From NCBI RefSeq assembly GCF_046105845.1, contig NZ_CP151004.1: 64,000 nt of DNA; one strand, 5' to 3'. This document shows, one piece after another, positions 3,714-23,205 of the stretch. A program made the position numbers and the translations under genes. The DNA comes from Escherichia coli. Its GTDB lineage: Bacteria; Pseudomonadota; Gammaproteobacteria; Enterobacterales; Enterobacteriaceae. Position 1 is the first letter of the stretch. The number at the start of each line of letters is the position of its first letter. The notes below the pieces were generated by a model that searched no databases, had not been told where the DNA came from, and saw only the letters and a program-made list of their open reading frames with translations.

Positions 3714-3967
3714 AAATAAATTAGCCTGATGGCCTGAACTACTGGGCCATTAGGTTATTGGGTTATGCTATTTATCATCCTTTTAATTGCGATAATGCAG
3801 GGTTAATTTACAGAATTAAACACTTTTTTATCTGCTGATTTTGTTTCAAATCACAATGTTATCTCAGAGATGACTCATAACTTAGGATTTCTATGAAAAT
3901 ATTGACGTAATTTTGCTTTTCTCTCGTTAGAATAGCGCGCACAAGGAACTGTGAAAAAGGAGTGGCA

Positions 3968-4858
3968 ATGATCAAGAAGACAACGGAAATTGATGCCATC
4001 TTGTTAAATCTCAATAAGGCTATCGATGCCCACTACCAGTGGCTGGTAAGTATGTTTCACAGCGTAGTCGCGAGAGATGCCAGTAAGCCAGAAATAACGG
4101 ATAACCATTCTTATGGACTGTGCCAGTTTGGTCGGTGGATTGATCATCTGGGGCCACTCGATAACGATGAATTACCTTACGTTCGGCTAATGGATTCTGC
4201 CCATCAACATATGCATAACTGTGGTCGGGAATTAATGCTGGCTATTGTTGAAAATCACTGGCAGGACGCGCATTTCGACGCCTTTCAGGAAGGGTTGCTT
4301 TCTTTTACTGCGGCATTAACCGATTACAAAATTTATTTGCTGACGATCCGTAGCAATATGGATGTTTTGACGGGATTGCCGGGTCGTCGGGTTCTTGATG
4401 AATCCTTTGATCATCAGTTACGCAACGCTGAGCCTCTGAATCTTTATTTAATGTTGTTGGATATTGACCGATTTAAATTGGTTAATGATACCTACGGGCA
4501 TTTAATCGGCGATGTAGTACTACGCACCCTGGCAACTTACTTAGCCAGTTGGACGCGTGATTACGAAACGGTTTATCGCTACGGGGGGGAAGAATTTATC
4601 ATTATTGTTAAAGCGGCTAATGATGAAGAAGCATGTCGTGCAGGTATCAGAATTTGCCAGTTAGTCGATAACCATGCCATCACACATTCTGAAGGGCATA
4701 TCAACATTACCGTGACTGCAGGTGTGAGTCGCGCATTTCCTGAAGAGCCTCTGGATGTGGTCATTGGAAGAGCGGACCGGGCAATGTATGAGGGTAAGCA
4801 AACCGGAAGAAATCGCTGTATGTTTATTGACGAACAAAATGTGATTAACCGAGTTTAA
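3968..4858 (+). CDS. dgcZ: Zinc-sensing diguanylate cyclase (CZB domain + GGDEF)
   Basis: ORF 3962..4858; conserved start MIKKTTEIDAILLNL at 3968; active-site motif RYGGEEF present; matches DgcZ/YdeH (296 aa). Confidence 0.93.
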   Translation: MIKKTTEIDAILLNLNKAIDAHYQWLVSMFHSVVARDASKPEITDNHSYGLCQFGRWIDHLGPLDNDELPYVRLMDSAHQHMHNCGRELMLAIVENHWQDAHFDAFQEGLLSFTAALTDYKIYLLTIRSNMDVLTGLPGRRVLDESFDHQLRNAEPLNLYLMLLDIDRFKLVNDTYGHLIGDVVLRTLATYLASWTRDYETVYRYGGEEFIIIVKAANDEEACRAGIRICQLVDNHAITHSEGHINITVTAGVSRAFPEEPLDVVIGRADRAMYEGKQTGRNRCMFIDEQNVINRV

Positions 4859-4862
4859 GCTC

Positions 4863-4879
4863 CGTTTAACATTCATTGA
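4863..4879 (+). promoter_or_regulatory. Candidate PhoP box (cGTTTA-N5-cATTGA) at the -35 position of the mgrR promoter
   Basis: Direct-repeat-like hexamers read from sequence, second half degenerate; mgrR is a known PhoPQ-activated sRNA. Coordinates approximate. Confidence 0.3.
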
Positions 4880-4904
4880 GAAAACTGATGCTACTGTGTC
4901 AACG

Positions 4905-5002
4905 ATCCGTTATCAGTGCAGGAAAATGCCTGTTAGCGTAAAAGCAAAACACAAATCTATCCATGCAAGCATTCACCGCCGGTTTACTGGCGGTTTTTTT
5001 TC
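4905..5002 (+). ncRNA. mgrR: MgrR small RNA (PhoP-regulated, Hfq-dependent), ending at an intrinsic terminator
   Basis: Position between dgcZ and mgtS as in K-12. 3' end set by the hairpin plus T8 run at about 4976-5001; 5' end is inferred from the expected ~98 nt length and was not read from a clear -10 element. Confidence 0.4.
4976..5001 (+). terminator. Rho-independent terminator (ccgcc...ggcgg stem followed by TTTTTTTT)
   Basis: GC stem followed by a run of 8 T read directly from sequence. Confidence 0.7.
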
Positions 5003-5009
5003 GCCGTCA

Positions 5010-5049
5010 TAAAAATCAGGCCCCTTGTACACAACTGTAACAAGGGGCC
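5010..5049 (-). terminator. Rho-independent terminator for mgtS (10-bp perfect stem ggccccttgt / acaaggggcc, U-rich tail on the minus strand)
   Basis: Perfect inverted repeat; minus-strand RNA continues UGAUUUUUAUG. Lies 28 nt downstream of the mgtS stop. Confidence 0.65.
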
Positions 5050-5076
5050 GGTTAGGTGAGGGATTATCTCCGTTCA

Positions 5077-5172
5077 TTAGTCATCCCATTTGTGGCTGAA
5101 ATACGCGGCCAGAAAACCAGAAAATAAAATTATTCCCAGTACGGCCATAAAAACATTCATATTACCCAGCAT
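5077..5172 (-). CDS. mgtS: Small membrane protein MgtS (31 aa), PhoP-regulated regulator of MgtA stability
   Basis: Minus-strand translation is MLGNMNVFMAVLGIILFSGFLAAYFSHKWDD*, matching MgtS/YneM as I recall it; GGAGG Shine-Dalgarno 8 nt upstream. Not in the ORF track because it is under 60 aa. Confidence 0.85.
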   Translation of the reverse strand: MLGNMNVFMAVLGIILFSGFLAAYFSHKWDD

Positions 5173-6680: not shown

Positions 6681-7580
6681 ATGTCGCGAAAAGATGGGGT
6701 GTTGGCGCTACTGGTAGTGGTCGTATGGGGGCTAAATTTTGTGGTCATCAAAGTGGGGCTTCATAACATGCCACCGCTGATGCTGGCCGGTTTGCGCTTT
6801 ATGCTGGTTGCTTTTCCGGCTATCTTTTTTGTCGCACGACCGAAAGTACCACTGAATTTGCTGCTGGGGTATGGATTAACCATCAGTTTTGCGCAGTTTG
6901 CTTTTCTTTTTTGTGCCATTAACTTCGGTATGCCTGCTGGTCTGGCTTCGTTGGTGTTACAGGCACAGGCGTTTTTTACTATCGTGCTTGGCGCGTTTAC
7001 TTTCGGTGAGCGACTGCATGGCAAACAATTGGCGGGGATCGCCTTAGCGATTTTTGGCGTACTGGTGTTAATCGAAGATAGTCTGAACGGTCAGCATGTG
7101 GCGATGCTCGGCTTTATGTTGACCCTGGCGGCAGCATTTAGTTGGGCGTGTGGCAACATCTTCAATAAAAAGATCATGTCGCACTCAACGCGTCCGGCGG
7201 TGATGTCGCTGGTAATCTGGAGCGCATTAATCCCAATCATTCCCTTCTTTGTTGCCTCGCTGATTCTCGATGGTTCCGCAACCATGATTCACAGTCTGGT
7301 TACTATCGATATGACCACCATCTTGTCTCTGATGTATCTGGCGTTTGTGGCGACAATTGTTGGTTATGGGATCTGGGGGACGTTACTGGGACGCTATGAA
7401 ACCTGGCGGGTTGCACCGTTATCGTTACTGGTGCCCGTAGTAGGACTGGCAAGTGCGGCACTATTGTTGGATGAACGCTTAACGGGTCTACAATTTTTCG
7501 GGGCGGTGCTCATTATGACCGGGCTGTATATCAATGTATTTGGCTTGCGGTGGCGTAAAGCGGTAAAGGTTAGAGGCTAA
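6681..7580 (+). CDS. eamA: Cysteine/O-acetylserine exporter (DMT/EamA family)
   Basis: ORF 6660..7580; conserved start MSRKDGVLALLVVVVWGLNF at 6681 gives 299 aa as in EamA/YdeD. Confidence 0.93.
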   Translation: MSRKDGVLALLVVVVWGLNFVVIKVGLHNMPPLMLAGLRFMLVAFPAIFFVARPKVPLNLLLGYGLTISFAQFAFLFCAINFGMPAGLASLVLQAQAFFTIVLGAFTFGERLHGKQLAGIALAIFGVLVLIEDSLNGQHVAMLGFMLTLAAAFSWACGNIFNKKIMSHSTRPAVMSLVIWSALIPIIPFFVASLILDGSATMIHSLVTIDMTTILSLMYLAFVATIVGYGIWGTLLGRYETWRVAPLSLLVPVVGLASAALLLDERLTGLQFFGAVLIMTGLYINVFGLRWRKAVKVRG

Positions 7581-7585
7581 ACCAT

Positions 7586-7629
7586 ACGCACAGAATGTGA
7601 TGTCAGCACTCTGTGCGTCTGCTTTTATC
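7586..7629 (+). terminator. eamA terminator: 9-bp stem (acgcacaga / tctgtgcgt) followed by a T-rich tract
   Basis: Hairpin plus gcttttat; the T-tract overlaps the stop codon of the convergent GntR-family gene (7625-7627). Confidence 0.55.
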
Positions 7630-8323
7630 GCGGGAAAAAGTACTTTACCTGGAACTCGAAAATATTGCTGTAAAGTAACGAATAATCCAGCGGAATAGAG
7701 TTACTATCCACAGCCTGGGTCTGAATTTTAAGTATGGGATCCCGTGGGCTGATCCGTAAAATACTGGCGATTTCTGGGGTAGGAAAAGTAGGGGAGAAAG
7801 TTTCAAAGGTGCCAATGATTTTGATCCCGCATTCGTTCTCAATATACGAAAATTTGGATTTTTGCATATGTGCTACGGTTAAATCAGGAAAACGTGCCAC
7901 TGACATCCACGTTTCTTCTAATTGTGCTGCATTATCCTCAATGAATCGCAGTCTCTTTATGTAATAAACCTGCTCACCAGTCACTAAATTCAGCTCAGTC
8001 GCAATAGGGGGAGAAGCATCCTGCACTTCAAATTTCATAATCTGACTTCCTGCCTCCTTGCCGCTTTTATGCGCAATTTCACTGAAGCTGTTCATGTGAT
8101 CAATGTGTGCAACAAAATTCTTTTTTTGAATGTATGTTCCTGAACCATGCTTTCTATGAATAACTCCTTCGCCTTCCAGCAAGGATAATGCCTTACGCAG
8201 GGTATTACGCGAAACATTATAACGAACAGCGAGTTCAGCTTCTGACGGCAACAAATCACCAACATGCCATGAATAGCCATTGATCTCGGATTTAAGTAAG
8301 CGGGCAATCTTTTGAAAAATCAC
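7625..8323 (-). CDS. GntR/HutC-family transcriptional regulator (N-terminal wHTH + UTRA effector domain)
   Basis: 232 aa; the segment LPSEAELAVRYNVSRNTLRKALSLLEGEGVIHRKHGSGTYI is a typical GntR HTH. Divergent from the PTS operon. Absent from K-12 by synteny (from memory). Confidence 0.85.
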   Translation of the reverse strand: MIFQKIARLLKSEINGYSWHVGDLLPSEAELAVRYNVSRNTLRKALSLLEGEGVIHRKHGSGTYIQKKNFVAHIDHMNSFSEIAHKSGKEAGSQIMKFEVQDASPPIATELNLVTGEQVYYIKRLRFIEDNAAQLEETWMSVARFPDLTVAHMQKSKFSYIENECGIKIIGTFETFSPTFPTPEIASILRISPRDPILKIQTQAVDSNSIPLDYSLLYSNIFEFQVKYFFPR

Positions 8324-8437
8324 TTTTGCACCTTTTAAGAGCCATTGAAAACAAGGGGTTGAGTCCTGATTGGTTTATCGTATGGCCGAGTCGTTTAATT
8401 ATTACCCTGATGTTGAACAACTTTATTGCTGTATTAC

Positions 8438-8520
8438 TGTGATCAATGTACCAGGACGTATAGCTACTGCGGGATATGATATTTACACAATGTAATCTGT
8501 TATATACCAGTAAGGGAAAA
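8438..8520. promoter_or_regulatory. Divergent promoter region with a CRP-like site (TGTGAtcaatgTACCA, ~8438-8453) and a near-palindromic HutC-type operator candidate (CTGTTATATACCAG, ~8507-8520) just upstream of the EIIB start
   Basis: Motifs read from sequence. Compared with CRP consensus TGTGA-N6-TCACA and with HutC-family dre-like palindromes (tGGTATAtACCa); both assignments are inference. Confidence 0.3.
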
Positions 8521-8521
8521 T

Positions 8522-8833
8522 ATGAAAAAGATATTGTTAGTTTGCGCTGCGGGCATGTCAACCAGTATGCTGGTTAAACGTATGATTGATCATGCTAACG
8601 CTATTTCACTTGAAGTTAATATTTCCGCATTGGCGATTGCAGAGGCTAAAGGGAAAATTAAAAATAACGAAGTTGACGTTGTTTTACTTGGCCCGCAAGT
8701 TCGCTTTCAGAAACCAGAGATTGAAGCTGTTGCACAGGGGAAAATGCCTGTAGCTGTTATCGAGATGAAAGACTATGGCACCATGAACGGACAGGCAGTT
8801 CTTGAATTTGCGATGAAACTACTGCAAGAGTAA
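8522..8833 (+). CDS. PTS EIIB component, lactose/cellobiose family
   Basis: 103 aa; MKKILLVCAAGMSTSMLVKRM carries the phospho-cysteine motif typical of Lac/Cel-family IIB. Confidence 0.9.
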   Translation: MKKILLVCAAGMSTSMLVKRMIDHANAISLEVNISALAIAEAKGKIKNNEVDVVLLGPQVRFQKPEIEAVAQGKMPVAVIEMKDYGTMNGQAVLEFAMKLLQE

Positions 8834-8947
8834 GAATCTAATATTATTAAACTATTACCTGAACTAACTTTTCACACATCATAAAATGGATATGGCATAC
8901 ATGCTTTATTGGGATGTATAAATATCCAGAACAGCAGGTATAAAAAA

Positions 8948-9819
8948 ATGGGATTAATGGCCTCATTCGAACGTGGAATGGAACGTTTTCTTGTTCCAGT
9001 TGCTATCAAGTTAAACTCACAAAAACATGTTGCAGCGGTGAGAGATGGATTCGTTTTTACGTTTCCAATTATTATGGCAAGTTCATTAATTATATTAATT
9101 AATTTTGCCATATTATCGCCAGACGGTTTTATTGCCGGATTACTGCATCTGAATAGCATTTTCCCCAACCTTGAAAAAGCACAAGCTATTTTTACTCCGG
9201 TAATGAATGGTTCTGTAAATATCATGTCAATTATGATTGCTTTCCTGGTCGCCAGGAATATGGCGATTAGCTATGAGCAAGATGATCTTTTATGCGGATT
9301 AACGGCAATAGGAGCATTTTTTATTGTTGGGCCGCTCAACACGGCACTACCTGGGGCGCGCCATATCCGATTACCTGGACTTCTATTAATGATGCATTCG
9401 CCAACTGCGGCGGTTCAGGTATGACGTTGGGGTTATTGTTGGCTATTTTTATCGCTTCTAAGCGTGCGGAATACCGTGATCTGGCAAAAATGTCATTTAT
9501 CCCCGGTATTTTCAATATCAATGAACCGATAATGTTCGGCCTTCCTATTGTACTTAACCCCATCATGATGGTGCCGTTTATTCTGGTTCCCATTGTTAAC
9601 TGTGCCATTGGTTACTTCTTTGTTTCGATGGAAATTATTCCACCGGTTGCTTATGCCGTGCCCTGGACTACGCCCGGACCTTTAATTGCTTTCCTCGGAA
9701 CCGGGGGAAACTGGCTGGCGTTACTGGTGGGTTTTTTATGTTTAGGTGTGGCGACAATGATCTATTTACCTTTTGTTATTGCCGCCAACAAGGTCAATAA
9801 CATGACAACTAACGGATAA
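8948..9819 (+). pseudogene. PTS EIIC component, lactose/cellobiose family, disrupted by an internal deletion with frame change
   Basis: Two overlapping ORFs in different frames (8909..9424 and 9292..9819). The first resembles an EIIC N-terminus (...[29 protein letters not shown]...), the second an EIIC C-terminus (...CGGSGMTLGLLLAIFIASKRAEY...IYLPFVIAANK). Combined coding potential is about 290 aa against ~430-450 aa for this family. Confidence 0.7.
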
Positions 9820-9840
9820 TCCCATTTACACAGGAAGGAG

Positions 9841-10158
9841 ATGTTGATGTTTGCAGATGAAGAACTTGTTATGGAGTTACTGGTCAACGCAGGACAGGCT
9901 CGTTCTGATGCGATGGAAGCCATACGTTGTGCCGGGCAAAAAGACTGGCAGGGCGCAACTCAGCTAATGGCCAGTTCTGAATGCGCCTGTCTTCAGGCGC
10001 ATAAGATTCAGACCGCGTTAATTAGTCAGGATGAAGGCTGTGGCAAAATAGAAGTTAATTTAATTCTGGTTCATGCACAGGATCATTTGATGAATGCAAT
10101 ATTATGCCAGGATTTAGCCAGGGAAATTATTTCATTAAGAAAAGAGCTCCATGCCTGA
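9841..10158 (+). CDS. PTS EIIA component, lactose/cellobiose family
   Basis: 105-aa ORF with helical EIIA-Lac/Cel-like sequence (MELLVNAGQARSDAMEAIRCA...). The start may be the second ATG at 9847, which has better spacing from GGAGG. Confidence 0.85.
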   Translation: MLMFADEELVMELLVNAGQARSDAMEAIRCAGQKDWQGATQLMASSECACLQAHKIQTALISQDEGCGKIEVNLILVHAQDHLMNAILCQDLAREIISLRKELHA

Positions 10159-10210
10159 TTTTTTCCTCCAGTGCGATAGCTGGAGGAAATTATTACACTC
10201 TTAAGGATAA

Positions 10211-13349
<3,139 letters not shown>

Positions 13350-13376
13350 GACTTCAGGAAGATATTACGGAGATAT

Positions 13377-13400
13377 CAGGCTCTGTGATCAGAGCCTGAC
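13377..13400. terminator. Hairpin (tcaggctctg / cagagcctga, 10-bp stem, 4-nt loop) between the convergent GH1 gene and marB
   Basis: Perfect inverted repeat read from sequence; no long T-tract. Coordinates approximate. Confidence 0.5.
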
Positions 13401-13405
13401 AATAA

Positions 13406-13624
13406 CTACATAGCGTGTTGATTATAATAGGGCACGCCGAGCGCATCCGACTTATCACTGCCAGTACCCATGTGATTTAAATCAAACGGTGGTTGTTCCT
13501 GCGATGGGGGAACAACCACGACATTGGCACAGGAAGTAACAACCTGCTGCGTGGTTTGTTCCGCAATGCCCTGCGTGGAAAAGAGAATAAACGCAGCTGC
13601 TATTGCGGATAAAAGTGGTTTCAT
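13406..13624 (-). CDS. marB: Multiple antibiotic resistance protein MarB (periplasmic)
   Basis: 72 aa, MKPLLSAIAAAFILFSTQGIA signal peptide; matches MarB. Confidence 0.92.
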   Translation of the reverse strand: MKPLLSAIAAAFILFSTQGIAEQTTQQVVTSCANVVVVPPSQEQPPFDLNHMGTGSDKSDALGVPYYNQHAM

Positions 13625-13655
13625 GATTGCCTCAGTGACGTTGTCACGTTATCAA

Positions 13656-14039
13656 CTAGCTGTTGTAATGATTTAATGGATGTAAAAAGCGCGATTCGCC
13701 CTGCATATTGGTCATCCGGTATTTATGTGGCGGAACATCAAAGTAATTTTTGAAGGTTCGGGTCAGAGTTTGTTGCGACTCGAAGCCATATCGTTCTGCC
13801 AGATAGAGTATCGGCTCGTTACTTTCCTTCAGCTTTTGCGCGATTTCCGTCATCTTACGGCTGCGGATGTATTGGCCTAATGAATGACCGGTTTCTTTTT
13901 TAAACATCCGTTGCAGGTGCCATTTAGAGTAACCCGAACGCTCTGACACTTTCTCCAGTGACAGTGGCGATTCCAGGTTGTCCTCGATCCAGTCCAAAAT
14001 GCTATGAATGGTAATAGCGTCAGTATTGCGTCTGGACAT
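13656..14039 (-). CDS. marA: AraC/XylS-family transcriptional activator MarA
   Basis: ORF 13656..14045; conserved start [23 protein letters not shown] (127 aa). Confidence 0.95.
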
Positions 14040-14059
14040 CGTCATACCTCTTTTTTTGT

Positions 14060-14494
14060 TTACGGCAGGACTTTCTTAAGCAAATGCTCAAGTGTTGCCA
14101 CTTCGTCCGCCGTCAGGTTTTTTGTTAATTCTTGATGCAGGTCCTGGCCAACTAATTGATGGCATTGTTCACATATTGCCGCGCCGCTGGTGGTAAGTTT
14201 TACCAGTACGCCGCGCTTGTCATTCGGGTTCGGCAACCTTTCCACCCAGCCTTTACAGACCAGGCGATCCAGCATACGGGTCAGCGCTCCCAGGTCGACC
14301 GACAACACTTTTTTCAGTTCAACCGGAGTAATACACGCCGCGCAGCGGATAGAGCAGAGCACCTTAAACTGTGCCGCGGTAATATCCAGCGGAGACAGAT
14401 ACTCATTAAGCAGGCGATCTTTCTTCTGATTAACCATATGGATTAAGCGACCCAATGGAATAATTTCATTGAACAGATCGCTGGTACTTTTCAC
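14060..14494 (-). CDS. marR: Transcriptional repressor MarR
   Basis: 144 aa [29 protein letters not shown]...; GTG start as in K-12. Confidence 0.95.
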
Positions 14495-14496
14495 AT

Positions 14497-14518
14497 TAGT
14501 TGCCCTGGCAAGTAATTA
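14497..14518 (-). promoter_or_regulatory. MarR operator, start-proximal site (TACTTGCCAGGGCAACTAAT), covering the marR ribosome-binding region
   Basis: Palindrome TTGCC-N3-GGCAA read on the minus strand immediately upstream of the marR GTG. Confidence 0.75.
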
Positions 14519-14530
14519 GTTGCAGGGGAT

Positions 14531-14552
14531 AATATTGCCCAGGCAAGTATAA
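14531..14552 (-). promoter_or_regulatory. MarR operator, promoter-overlapping site (ATACTTGCCTGGGCAATATTAT), containing the marRAB -10 (TATTAT)
   Basis: Second TTGCC-N3-GGCAA palindrome read on the minus strand. Confidence 0.75.
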
Positions 14553-14570
14553 GTCAAATGAATGAATTGA

Positions 14571-14593
14571 CCGATGCCACGTTTTGCTAAATC
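14571..14593 (-). promoter_or_regulatory. marbox (MarA/SoxS/Rob binding site) GATTTAGCAAAACGTGGCATCGG
   Basis: Matches the canonical marRAB marbox on the minus strand, upstream of the promoter. Confidence 0.75.
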
Positions 14594-14705
14594 GGTTCAA
14601 GTTTTGGTCAGTGCGATGCAAGGTTAGCTAAAGAGTGACACTTTATCGTTGTTTACCCCTTATACTTTTCGCTGATAACCCAGATACACAGGATAACAAC
14701 CACCA

Positions 14706-15371
14706 ATGTTAGATTTATTTAAAGCAATTGGCTTGGGGTTGGTGGTGTTACTACCGTTAGCTAACCCATTAACAACTGTCGCGTTATTTCTTGGCCTGGC
14801 AGGCAACATGAACAGTGCCGAACGTAATCGTCAGTCGTTGATGGCCTCGGTGTACGTCTTTGCCATCATGATGGTGGCGTATTACGCCGGGCAACTGGTG
14901 ATGGATACATTTGGCATTTCGATTCCCGGTCTGCGAATTGCAGGCGGCTTAATCGTCGCGTTTATCGGTTTTCGGATGCTCTTTCCGCAACAGAAAGCAA
15001 TTGATTCACCGGAAGCGAAAAGCAAGTCGGAAGAGCTGGAAGATGAACCCAGTGCCAATATTGCCTTTGTACCACTGGCAATGCCAAGTACCGCCGGTCC
15101 GGGAACCATTGCAATGATTATTAGCTCGGCGTCCACAGTGCGTCAGAGTTCAACCTTCGCTGATTGGGTGCTGATGGTTGCGCCGCCGCTGATCTTTTTC
15201 CTGGTGGCGGTTATTTTGTGGGGAAGCCTACGCAGCTCTGGCGCAATTATGCGGCTGGTGGGCAAGGGAGGCATTGAAGCGATCTCCCGCCTGATGGGAT
15301 TCCTGCTGGTATGTATGGGTGTGCAGTTTATTATTAACGGCATTCTGGAAATCATTAAAACGTACCATTAA
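14706..15371 (+). CDS. marC: MarC-family inner-membrane protein
   Basis: 221 aa [33 protein letters not shown]...; divergent from marRAB. Confidence 0.93.
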
Positions 15372-15392
15372 AAAAGGCCCGAATGGGCCTTT
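15371..15392. terminator. Bidirectional terminator hairpin (A-run, aggccc-gaat-gggcct, T-run) between convergent marC and sotB
   Basis: aaaaaggcccgaatgggccttt read directly. Confidence 0.65.
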
Positions 15393-15395
15393 CAA

Positions 15396-16586
15396 CTATT
15401 GCGTCTGTTCTTCGAGTGTCACTGGCCAGCGGCGAAAAATGATGATTGACCATATTAACGCGGCAAAAGCAGGCACCGCGCCCACATAACCAATCATCGA
15501 CATTGACCAGTGCAGACTGACCTGATTACCTACCAACGCGCCAGCGCCGATTCCAATATTAAATATCCCCGAGAATAGCGCCATCGCGACGTCGGTGGCA
15601 TCTGGTGCCAGCGCCAGCACTTTAACCTGCATACCAAGCCCGATGATCATCATCGCGATCCCCCAGAAAATACTTAGCACCCCGAGGTGTATTTCACTGT
15701 TCGCCGCAGGTAGCAGCAGTGCGAGGCACACCAGCAACAACGCAATCGCCGTACTCACCAACGCAGACGCATACTGATTACCCAGTTTCCCGAAAATCAC
15801 GCTGCCAATAATGCCCGCACCACCGAGTAATAACAGTAATGCCGTGGCAAAGTTGGCGCTGAATCCCGCAATGTTTTGCACAAAAGGCTCGATATAGCTG
15901 TATGCCGTGTAATGGGCGGTGACAACCACCACAGTTAACAAATAAATGCTCATTAATGCCGGGCGGCGGAACAATAGCGGGAGGCTTTTCAATGAACCGG
16001 AATGCTCACTGGGCAGCAAGGGAAGTAACTTAATCAGGCACAAAAGGGTAATAAACGCCCCGATACCAATCGCGAAGAAGGTCATTCGCCAGCCAAAATA
16101 CTGCCCCACAATGCGCCCGAGAGGTAAACCTAATACCATTGCCAGTGCTGTACCGGTGGCAATTAAACTCAACGCCTGCGCTCGCTTCCCGGCCGGAGCC
16201 ATACGGATCGCCAGAGACGCCGTAATCGACCAGAAAATCGCATGTGCAAAAGCCACACCAATGCGACTGATCACCAGAACGGTAAAACTCCACGACAAAA
16301 ACGACAGTACGTGACTGGCAATAAATACCACAAACAGGCAGATCAGTAATTTGCGCCGTTCAACCTGGCTGGTCATTAACATAAAAGGCAATGACATTAG
16401 CGCCACTACCCATGCATAAATCGTCAACATGATGCCGACCTGAGCGGTTTGCATGTGAAAACTTTGCGCAATGTCAGAGAGCAGGCCAACAGGGACAAAT
16501 TCGGTGGTGTTGAAGATGAAGGCGGCGACTGCCAGCGTAACGACCCGTAGCCACGCCACTTTGCGGGAAACAGTGTTTGTTGTCAT
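15396..16586 (-). CDS. sotB: MFS sugar efflux transporter
   Basis: 396 aa; matches SotB/YdeA. Confidence 0.92.
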
Positions 16587-21786: not shown

Positions 21787-23205
21787 ATGCATGTACAGCC
21801 CATTTCAACTTTCCGTTTGTTCCAGGAAGGTCATCTGCTACGTAATAGCATCGCTATTTTTGCGCTAACCACGCTGTTCTATTTTATTGGTGCAGAGTTA
21901 CGGCTGGTTCACGAACTTTCTCTTTTCTGGCCGCTGAATGGCGTAATGGCGGGGGTGTTTGCCCGCTATGTCTGGCTTAATCGACTGCATTACTATGCGA
22001 TCAGTTATGTGGCAATGCTGGTTTATGATGCCATAACCACCGAATGGGGGCTGGTTTCACTGGCTATCAATTTCTCCAATATGATGTTTATTGTTACCGT
22101 CGCCTTACTGGTCGCGCGGGATAAGCGTCTGGGGAAAAATAAGTACGAGCCAGTAAGTGCCTTACGGCTATTTAATTACTGTCTGATTGCCGCATTATTA
22201 TGCGCTATTGTCGGGGCGATTGGTTCGGTCAGTATTGATAGTCTGGATTTCTGGCCTTTGCTTGCCGACTGGTTCAGTGAGCAATTCTCAACGGGCGTGT
22301 TGATCGTGCCTTGTATGCTGACGTTGGCAATTCCTGGAGTGCTGCCGCGCTTTAAAGCAGAACAGATGATGCCCGCTATCGCGCTTATTGTGTCGGTTAT
22401 TGCCTCGGTAGTCATTGGCGGAGCGGGGAGTCTGGCGTTCCCGCTGCCTGCATTAATCTGGTGTGCAGTGCGCTATACGCCGCAGGTAACATGTCTGTTG
22501 ACCTTTGTCACCGGTGCGGTTGAAATCGTACTGGTGGCAAATTCGGTGATTGATATCTCGGTCGGTTCGCCGTTCTCCATTCCGCAAATGTTCTCCGCAC
22601 GTCTCGGTATTGCCACGATGGCGATATGCCCAATTATGGTTTCTTTTAGCGTGGCAGCGATCAATTCGCTAATGAAGCAAGTTGCGCTGCGAGCCGACTT
22701 TGATTTTCTGACTCAGGTTTACTCACGGTCCGGTCTTTATGAGGCGCTGAAAAGTCCATCGCTGAAACAGACACAACATCTGACTGTCATGCTGCTTGAT
22801 ATCGACTATTTCAAAAGCATTAACGATAACTATGGACATGAATGTGGCGATAAAGTGTTAAGCGTGTTTGCCCAGCATATTCAGAAGATTGTCGGTGATA
22901 AGGGGCTGGTGGCGCGAATGGGCGGCGAAGAATTTGCTGTTGCAGTGCCATCGGTGAATCCTGTCGATGGTCTGCTAATGGCGGAAAAAATCCGTAAAGG
23001 CGTTGAACTGCAACCGTTCACCTGGCAACAAAAAACGCTTTATCTCACGGTAAGTATTGGCGTCGGTAGTGGTTGCGCATCGTACCGAACGCTGACCGAT
23101 GACTTTAATAAATTGATGGTCGAAGCCGATACATGTCTGTATCGCTCGAAGAAAGATGGGCGCAACCGTACCAGCACTATGCGTTACGGTGAGGAAGTTG
23201 TCTGA
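21787..23205 (+). CDS. dgcF: Membrane-anchored diguanylate cyclase (N-terminal multi-TM sensor domain + GGDEF)
   Basis: 472-aa ORF with hydrophobic N-terminal half and GGEEF active site (ARMGGEEFAV). The true start may lie downstream; older K-12 annotations of yneF are shorter. Confidence 0.8.
   Translation: MHVQPISTFRLFQEGHLLRNSIAIFALTTLFYFIGAELRLVHELSLFWPLNGVMAGVFARYVWLNRLHYYAISYVAMLVYDAITTEWGLVSLAINFSNMMFIVTVALLVARDKRLGKNKYEPVSALRLFNYCLIAALLCAIVGAIGSVSIDSLDFWPLLADWFSEQFSTGVLIVPCMLTLAIPGVLPRFKAEQMMPAIALIVSVIASVVIGGAGSLAFPLPALIWCAVRYTPQVTCLLTFVTGAVEIVLVANSVIDISVGSPFSIPQMFSARLGIATMAICPIMVSFSVAAINSLMKQVALRADFDFLTQVYSRSGLYEALKSPSLKQTQHLTVMLLDIDYFKSINDNYGHECGDKVLSVFAQHIQKIVGDKGLVARMGGEEFAVAVPSVNPVDGLLMAEKIRKGVELQPFTWQQKTLYLTVSIGVGSGCASYRTLTDDFNKLMVEADTCLYRSKKDGRNRTSTMRYGEEVV

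Follow-up and report, generated by a model that had tools for sequence, protein, structure and literature searches.

The 211-bp gap between marR and marC on this Escherichia coli chromosome (positions 14495-14705 of the window, by which we mean the whole 64,000-nucleotide stretch that was analysed) is, with high confidence, a native wild-type marO operator-promoter, which controls the minus-strand marRAB genes and has the divergent marC on its other side. To the extent that sequence allows a judgement, the mar locus should be under normal repression and open to induction rather than constitutively expressed. This expectation arises because the core elements of marO and the MarA protein are the same as in K-12 and because MarR is an intact, full-length majority allele. 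It applies to the mar locus in the window; acrR, soxR, rob and lon lie outside. Nothing in the sequence contradicts a wild-type reading, and the preliminary description, which had considered mar inducible rather than constitutive, is supported to that extent.

Gene content and layout of the mar locus

The marO region spans the entire space between two divergent transcription units, with marA and marB trailing marR on one strand and marC facing away from them on the other. The locus comprises the following features.

14495-14705, minus strand: marO, the marC-marR intergenic control region, of the same length as in K-12 and identical to it at 207 of 211 positions
14494-14060, minus strand: marR, encoding a winged-helix repressor of the MarR family, GTG start, 144 aa, with a Pfam MarR match (PF01047, E=1.8e-18) and matches to PDB entries 3VOE, 5H3R and 1JGS
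14039-13656, minus strand: marA, AraC-family activator, 127 aa, with Pfam HTH_18/HTH_AraC matches and no amino acid differences from K-12
13624-13406, minus strand: marB, 72 aa, with a Pfam MarB match (PF13999, E=1.5e-33) and six substitutions relative to K-12
14706-15371, plus strand: marC, the divergent gene, 221 aa, with a Pfam MarC match (PF01914) and a protein sequence identical to that of K-12
15396-16586, minus strand: ydeA, downstream of marC

The order ydeA-marC / marR-marA-marB is also annotated in K-12 MG1655 and in the best match, strain 2012C-4221, and homologous E. coli records annotate the marR flank and the marC flank of marO in the same way. A megablast search with positions 13350-15450 as the query found the marC/marR/marA/marB/ydeA locus in 5419 of 5426 complete E. 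coli genomes. Rfam assigned no RNA family in or near marO, and a scan of positions 13300-15500 found no terminator.

Comparison with the marO/marRAB locus of K-12 MG1655 (b1530-b1532, NC_000913.3 1618909-1620207) reveals the same gene order and the same intergenic length of 211 bp. The marbox, the -35 and -10 elements, both palindromes, the leader, the GTG start codon, MarA (127/127 residues) and MarC are identical, the marC genes being separated by 18 synonymous nucleotide differences. The window differs from MG1655 in four substitutions upstream of the marbox, in the MarR substitutions G103S and Y137H, and in six of the 72 residues of MarB (S5L, L12F, A17T, V20I, P27Q and H44Q). Among the proteins of the locus, MarB has diverged most; its exact allele is nevertheless found on at least 1000 contigs. 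One complete genome, that of strain 19KM1831 (NZ_CP151026.1), is 100% identical to the window over 646 bp covering marO and marR.

A further difference from K-12 MG1655 lies next to the locus, where an island of about 5.8 kb (7570-13404) separates eamA from marB; it is absent from K-12 and present in strain 2012C-4221. The island encodes a GntR regulator, PTS IIB/IIC/IIA components, a carbohydrate porin and a GH1 6-phospho-beta-glucosidase. Its PTS EIIC gene (8909-9819) lacks about 450 bp relative to strain 2012C-4221, with the junction near 9328, and the remnant consists of two overlapping partial open reading frames (8909-9424 and 9292-9819), so that the gene looks inactivated. The GH1 6-phospho-beta-glucosidase (11910-13349) has 479 aa in the window versus 449 aa in strain 2012C-4221, a 90-bp difference bounded by the 13-nt direct repeats GGGAAATGAAAAA (13126-13138 and 13216-13228). 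Since the copy in the window matches the Pfam GH1 profile from end to end, the deletion belongs to strain 2012C-4221.

The sole Rfam match in the window is the Hfq-binding sRNA STnc560 at 4870-5083 on the plus strand (281.9 bits), just downstream of an open reading frame at 3962-4858, which by its position we take to be dgcZ; the STnc560 match presumably corresponds to MgrR of K-12, which occupies the same place there. Among the 5426 complete E. coli genomes, identity to the window reaches at most 99.1% over marRAB-marC (13350-15450) and 98.8% over 24 kb (20000-44000), which indicates that the lineage from which the DNA derives has no close representative among complete genomes. In the closest genome, AST215, the homologous stretch is longer by about 7.8 kb, and the annotation suggests that the addition is the LysR-to-decarboxylase block after hipA.

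Core operator-promoter elements

The promoter-proximal 112 bp of marO (14495-14606, or intergenic positions 100-211 when numbered from marC) show no difference from K-12 MG1655, and for this reason all spacings between the marO elements equal those of K-12. These elements are as follows.

14494-14492, minus strand: GTG start codon of marR, as in K-12
14500-14511, minus strand: palindrome core of MarR site II, TTGCCAGGGCAA on the mar strand, 5 nt upstream of the GTG start, identical to K-12
14529-14534, minus strand: -10 hexamer TATTAT of the marRAB promoter, from the promoter scan
14535-14546, minus strand: palindrome core of MarR site I, TTGCCTGGGCAA on the mar strand, between -35 and -10, identical to K-12
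14552-14557, minus strand: -35 hexamer TTGACT of the marRAB promoter, from the promoter scan
14574-14593, plus strand: marbox, the MarA/SoxS/Rob site, ATGCCACGTTTTGCTAAATC (GATTTAGCAAAACGTGGCAT on the mar strand), identical to K-12

The preliminary description had already recorded the canonical marbox, the canonical spacing and the GTG start of marR, and all three are borne out by the comparison with K-12. It had also reported two MarR palindromes of the form TTGCC-N3-GGCAA. Both palindromes are indeed present, but their spacer is one of two nucleotides: a pattern scan of the 64 kb finds TTGCC-N2-GGCAA twice, versus 0.13 matches expected, and TTGCC-N3-GGCAA nowhere in the window. Its view that marO is fully conserved holds for the promoter-proximal 112 bp and has to be qualified for the region as a whole, given the four distal substitutions. 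No obvious promoter or operator mutation had been seen, and we agree: relative to K-12, site I, site II and the promoter carry no substitution, deletion or duplication, and the mar locus has no operator deletion, duplication or truncation.

The sigma-70 promoter TTGACT-17-TATTAT (14557-14529, minus strand) is the top-scoring site of the region in the promoter scan, with 10 of 12 consensus matches. Its -35 hexamer is preceded at a distance of 16 bp by the marbox, the consensus of which reads on the plus strand, i.e., backward relative to marRAB transcription. With one mismatch to AYnGCACnnWnnRYYAAAYn, the marbox is unique in the window; as a match to this degenerate consensus is not significant by itself (one match versus 1.75 expected), the reality of the marbox rests on its identity to K-12 and its conservation across species. 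With the marbox centred at -61.5, the transcription start would be near 14522. The arrangement of the MarR sites agrees with the published layout of marO, in which site I lies between -35 and -10 and site II near the start codon (PMC3920692). A further description of marO includes the marbox upstream as well as a known 20-bp operator duplication (PMC3832178). That duplication (GCAACTAATTACTTGCCAGG) is one of the lesions at this same locus that give rise to constitutive Mar mutants, which also include site I deletions in marO and loss-of-function mutations in marR. In contrast to such mutants, the present locus retains both palindromes and a full-length MarR, and the duplication is absent, the intergenic region having kept its length.

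Of 5418 matching E. coli records, 5279 are at least 99% identical to the core 112 bp, so an intact marO core is the rule in E. coli. For a wider comparison, one genome per species was scanned for two TTGCCNGGGCAA palindromes 18-28 nt apart, which yielded 76 loci; 41 of these, all from Enterobacteriaceae, have a MarR orthologue immediately after the palindromes. As the two-palindrome pattern was used to choose the loci, the palindromes' own conservation in the alignment of these 41 is a circular result; the -35 and -10 elements, the marbox core and the start codon lie outside that pattern. The -35 element, TTGAC(T/A) and mostly TTGACT, is near-invariant across the alignment, and the -10 element conforms to TAnTAT in 43 of 43 aligned Enterobacteriaceae sequences. 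The marbox core TTTAGCA....GTG.(C/G)AT is kept across the 41 species loci, and marR starts with GTG or TTG, with ATG at no locus. A contig labelled "MAG: Caldithrix sp." (SMXE01000224.1) has a marO-marR sequence identical to that of K-12; its mar locus is probably E. coli contamination of the Caldithrix metagenome bin.

Distal marO substitutions and the MarR allele

All four differences from K-12 in marO lie upstream of the marbox, in the marC-proximal half. Given for the mar strand as K-12 to window, they are 14648 G>C, 14624 G>A, 14611 T>C and 14607 A>C. The part of marO in which they fall contains two candidate sites.

14607-14648, minus strand: span of the four substitutions, from the alignment to K-12
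14609-14595, minus strand: 15-mer resembling the Fis consensus, GACCAAAACTTGAAC (GAACAAAACTTGAAC in K-12), adjoining the marbox, read from the sequence
14642-14656, minus strand: direct repeat GTAAA-N5-ATAAA, CpxR-box-like, from a pattern scan, with the 14648 substitution in its N5 spacer

The direct repeat is a tentative candidate for a CpxR box; none of the searchable papers placed a CpxR site in marO. Repeats of the form GTAAA-N5-RTAAA occur five times in the window (6388, 14642, 21723, 46048 and 47665), versus 0.44 expected; one of them is the marO repeat, and another precedes a diguanylate cyclase gene at 21787 by about 50 bp.

Allele frequencies come from megablast with queries so short that a mismatched test base would abolish the 28-nt seed. 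By this measure, 709 of 5426 complete genomes carry C at 14648 and 508 carry C at both 14607 and 14611. In alignments, the window shares A at 14624 and C at 14607 with E. albertii and the species representative of E. coli, and C at 14611 with E. whittamii and Escherichia sp. E1V33. By these comparisons, the four distal changes are standing polymorphisms of E. coli, and two of the four states are probably ancestral in Escherichia.

MarR is full length, with 144 aa. It matches K-12 MarR at 142 of 144 residues, the exceptions being G103S and Y137H, and its gene carries five synonymous changes besides. Solved MarR structures match it over all 144 residues (E=3.6e-92), and in the printed alignment with the best of these, 3VOE, residues 103 and 137 are the sole differences. 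Comparison of the open reading frame with K-12 revealed no truncation, frameshift or demonstrated loss-of-function substitution.

Since distal substitutions fall in or beside candidate regulator sites, one may ask whether they modify the control of marRAB. The 14607 change lies within the Fis-like 15-mer and 14611 lies 2 nt outside it. The centre of the Fis site was reportedly placed at -81 by Martin and Rosner in 1997. Binding of Fis just upstream of the marbox is documented (PMC7355843). From this it could be argued that the distal substitutions change how Fis or CpxR modulates marRAB, or affect the divergent marC promoter, and thereby give rise to lineage-specific tuning of induced expression. 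We find this scarcely credible, however. The 14607 change occupies an unconstrained N position of the Fis consensus, leaving the G-N13-C frame and the A/T core in place, and the 14648 change is confined to a spacer. Moreover, the alleles are common polymorphisms, found in 9-13% of genomes, two of the four probably represent the ancestral Escherichia state, and the sequence upstream of the marbox, which harbours all four, does not align outside the genus Escherichia. That the minority haplotype with C at 14607, 14611 and 14648 slightly retunes Fis- or envelope-stress-dependent amplification of marRAB, or the strength of the marC promoter, in this lineage is likewise improbable, though we would grant it a small chance.

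The other candidate for a departure from wild-type control is MarR itself. Substitutions in MarR at known resistance positions are what the preliminary description had named as evidence against its reading. The alignment of marR and marO to K-12 that it had proposed leaves core marO unchanged and brings to light G103S/Y137H, a pair reported elsewhere as derepressing and listed among marR mutations in many resistance papers. If the pair partly derepressed marRAB, MarA and AcrAB-TolC expression would be constitutively raised, and two studies state that it increases marRAB/acrAB expression (PMC11504656 and PMC8976530), although neither isolated the substitutions. In a clinical series, however, the isolates that carried the pair included some with a levofloxacin MIC of 0.016-0.25 ug/mL besides resistant ones, and no level of resistance was significantly associated with it (PMC4317672). 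Among quinolone-resistant E. coli isolates in a survey, no other pair of MarR substitutions was as common (PMC7082582). The distribution of the pair among genomes points the same way. Using 55-mers centred on each SNP, for which a local control with K-12-type sequences gave no match, we found S103 in 4222 and H137 in 4220 of 5426 complete E. coli genomes. The window thus shares the S103/H137 allele of the common non-K-12 mar haplotype of E. coli, which accounts for about 78% of complete genomes. In the protein collection, this MarR allele and that of K-12 are each found on at least 1000 contigs. S103 and H137 are also present in E. albertii, E. whittamii, Escherichia sp. E1V33 and the E. coli species representative, making them the reference state of the genus and the G103 and Y137 of K-12 a derived minority state. 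Furthermore, among the 41 orthologues with the same operator, residue 103 is S, G, E, D or H and residue 137 is H, Y, L, C or Q; as both vary freely under the same operator, they are unlikely to be needed for operator recognition. We therefore reject G103S/Y137H as derepressing mutations, as they constitute a majority allele shared with other Escherichia and lacking an association with resistance, and regard constitutive elevation of MarA from this source as very improbable.

Expected regulation

The wild-type reading of marO thus retained suggests the following course of events. Binding, repression and induction are inferred from the characterised K-12 system, the sequence features being read directly. 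Judging from the identity with K-12, MarR dimers on both TTGCC-N2-GGCAA palindromes would keep marRAB repressed, with site I positioned between -35 and -10 and site II between the transcription start and the GTG start codon. From what is known of K-12, inducers such as salicylate, and oxidation of Cys80 by copper, would release MarR, upon which RNA polymerase could use the TTGACT/TATTAT promoter. MarA, SoxS or Rob bound at the marbox would then activate transcription from a position 16 bp upstream of -35, and Fis at the adjoining upstream site would boost this activation. The substitutions at 14607, inside the Fis-like site, and at 14611 may have a quantitative effect on activated expression. 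The conserved non-ATG start codon of marR, with site II only 5 nt before it, would fit limited translation of MarR.

The marO region is among the best-characterised bacterial control regions, and the present copy represents its wild-type form, with known biology. Its value for annotation lies in MarR: G103S and Y137H, which are scored against K-12 and regularly appear in reports as resistance mutations, are instead the majority and ancestral allele and should not be taken as evidence of a Mar phenotype, either in this genome or in others.
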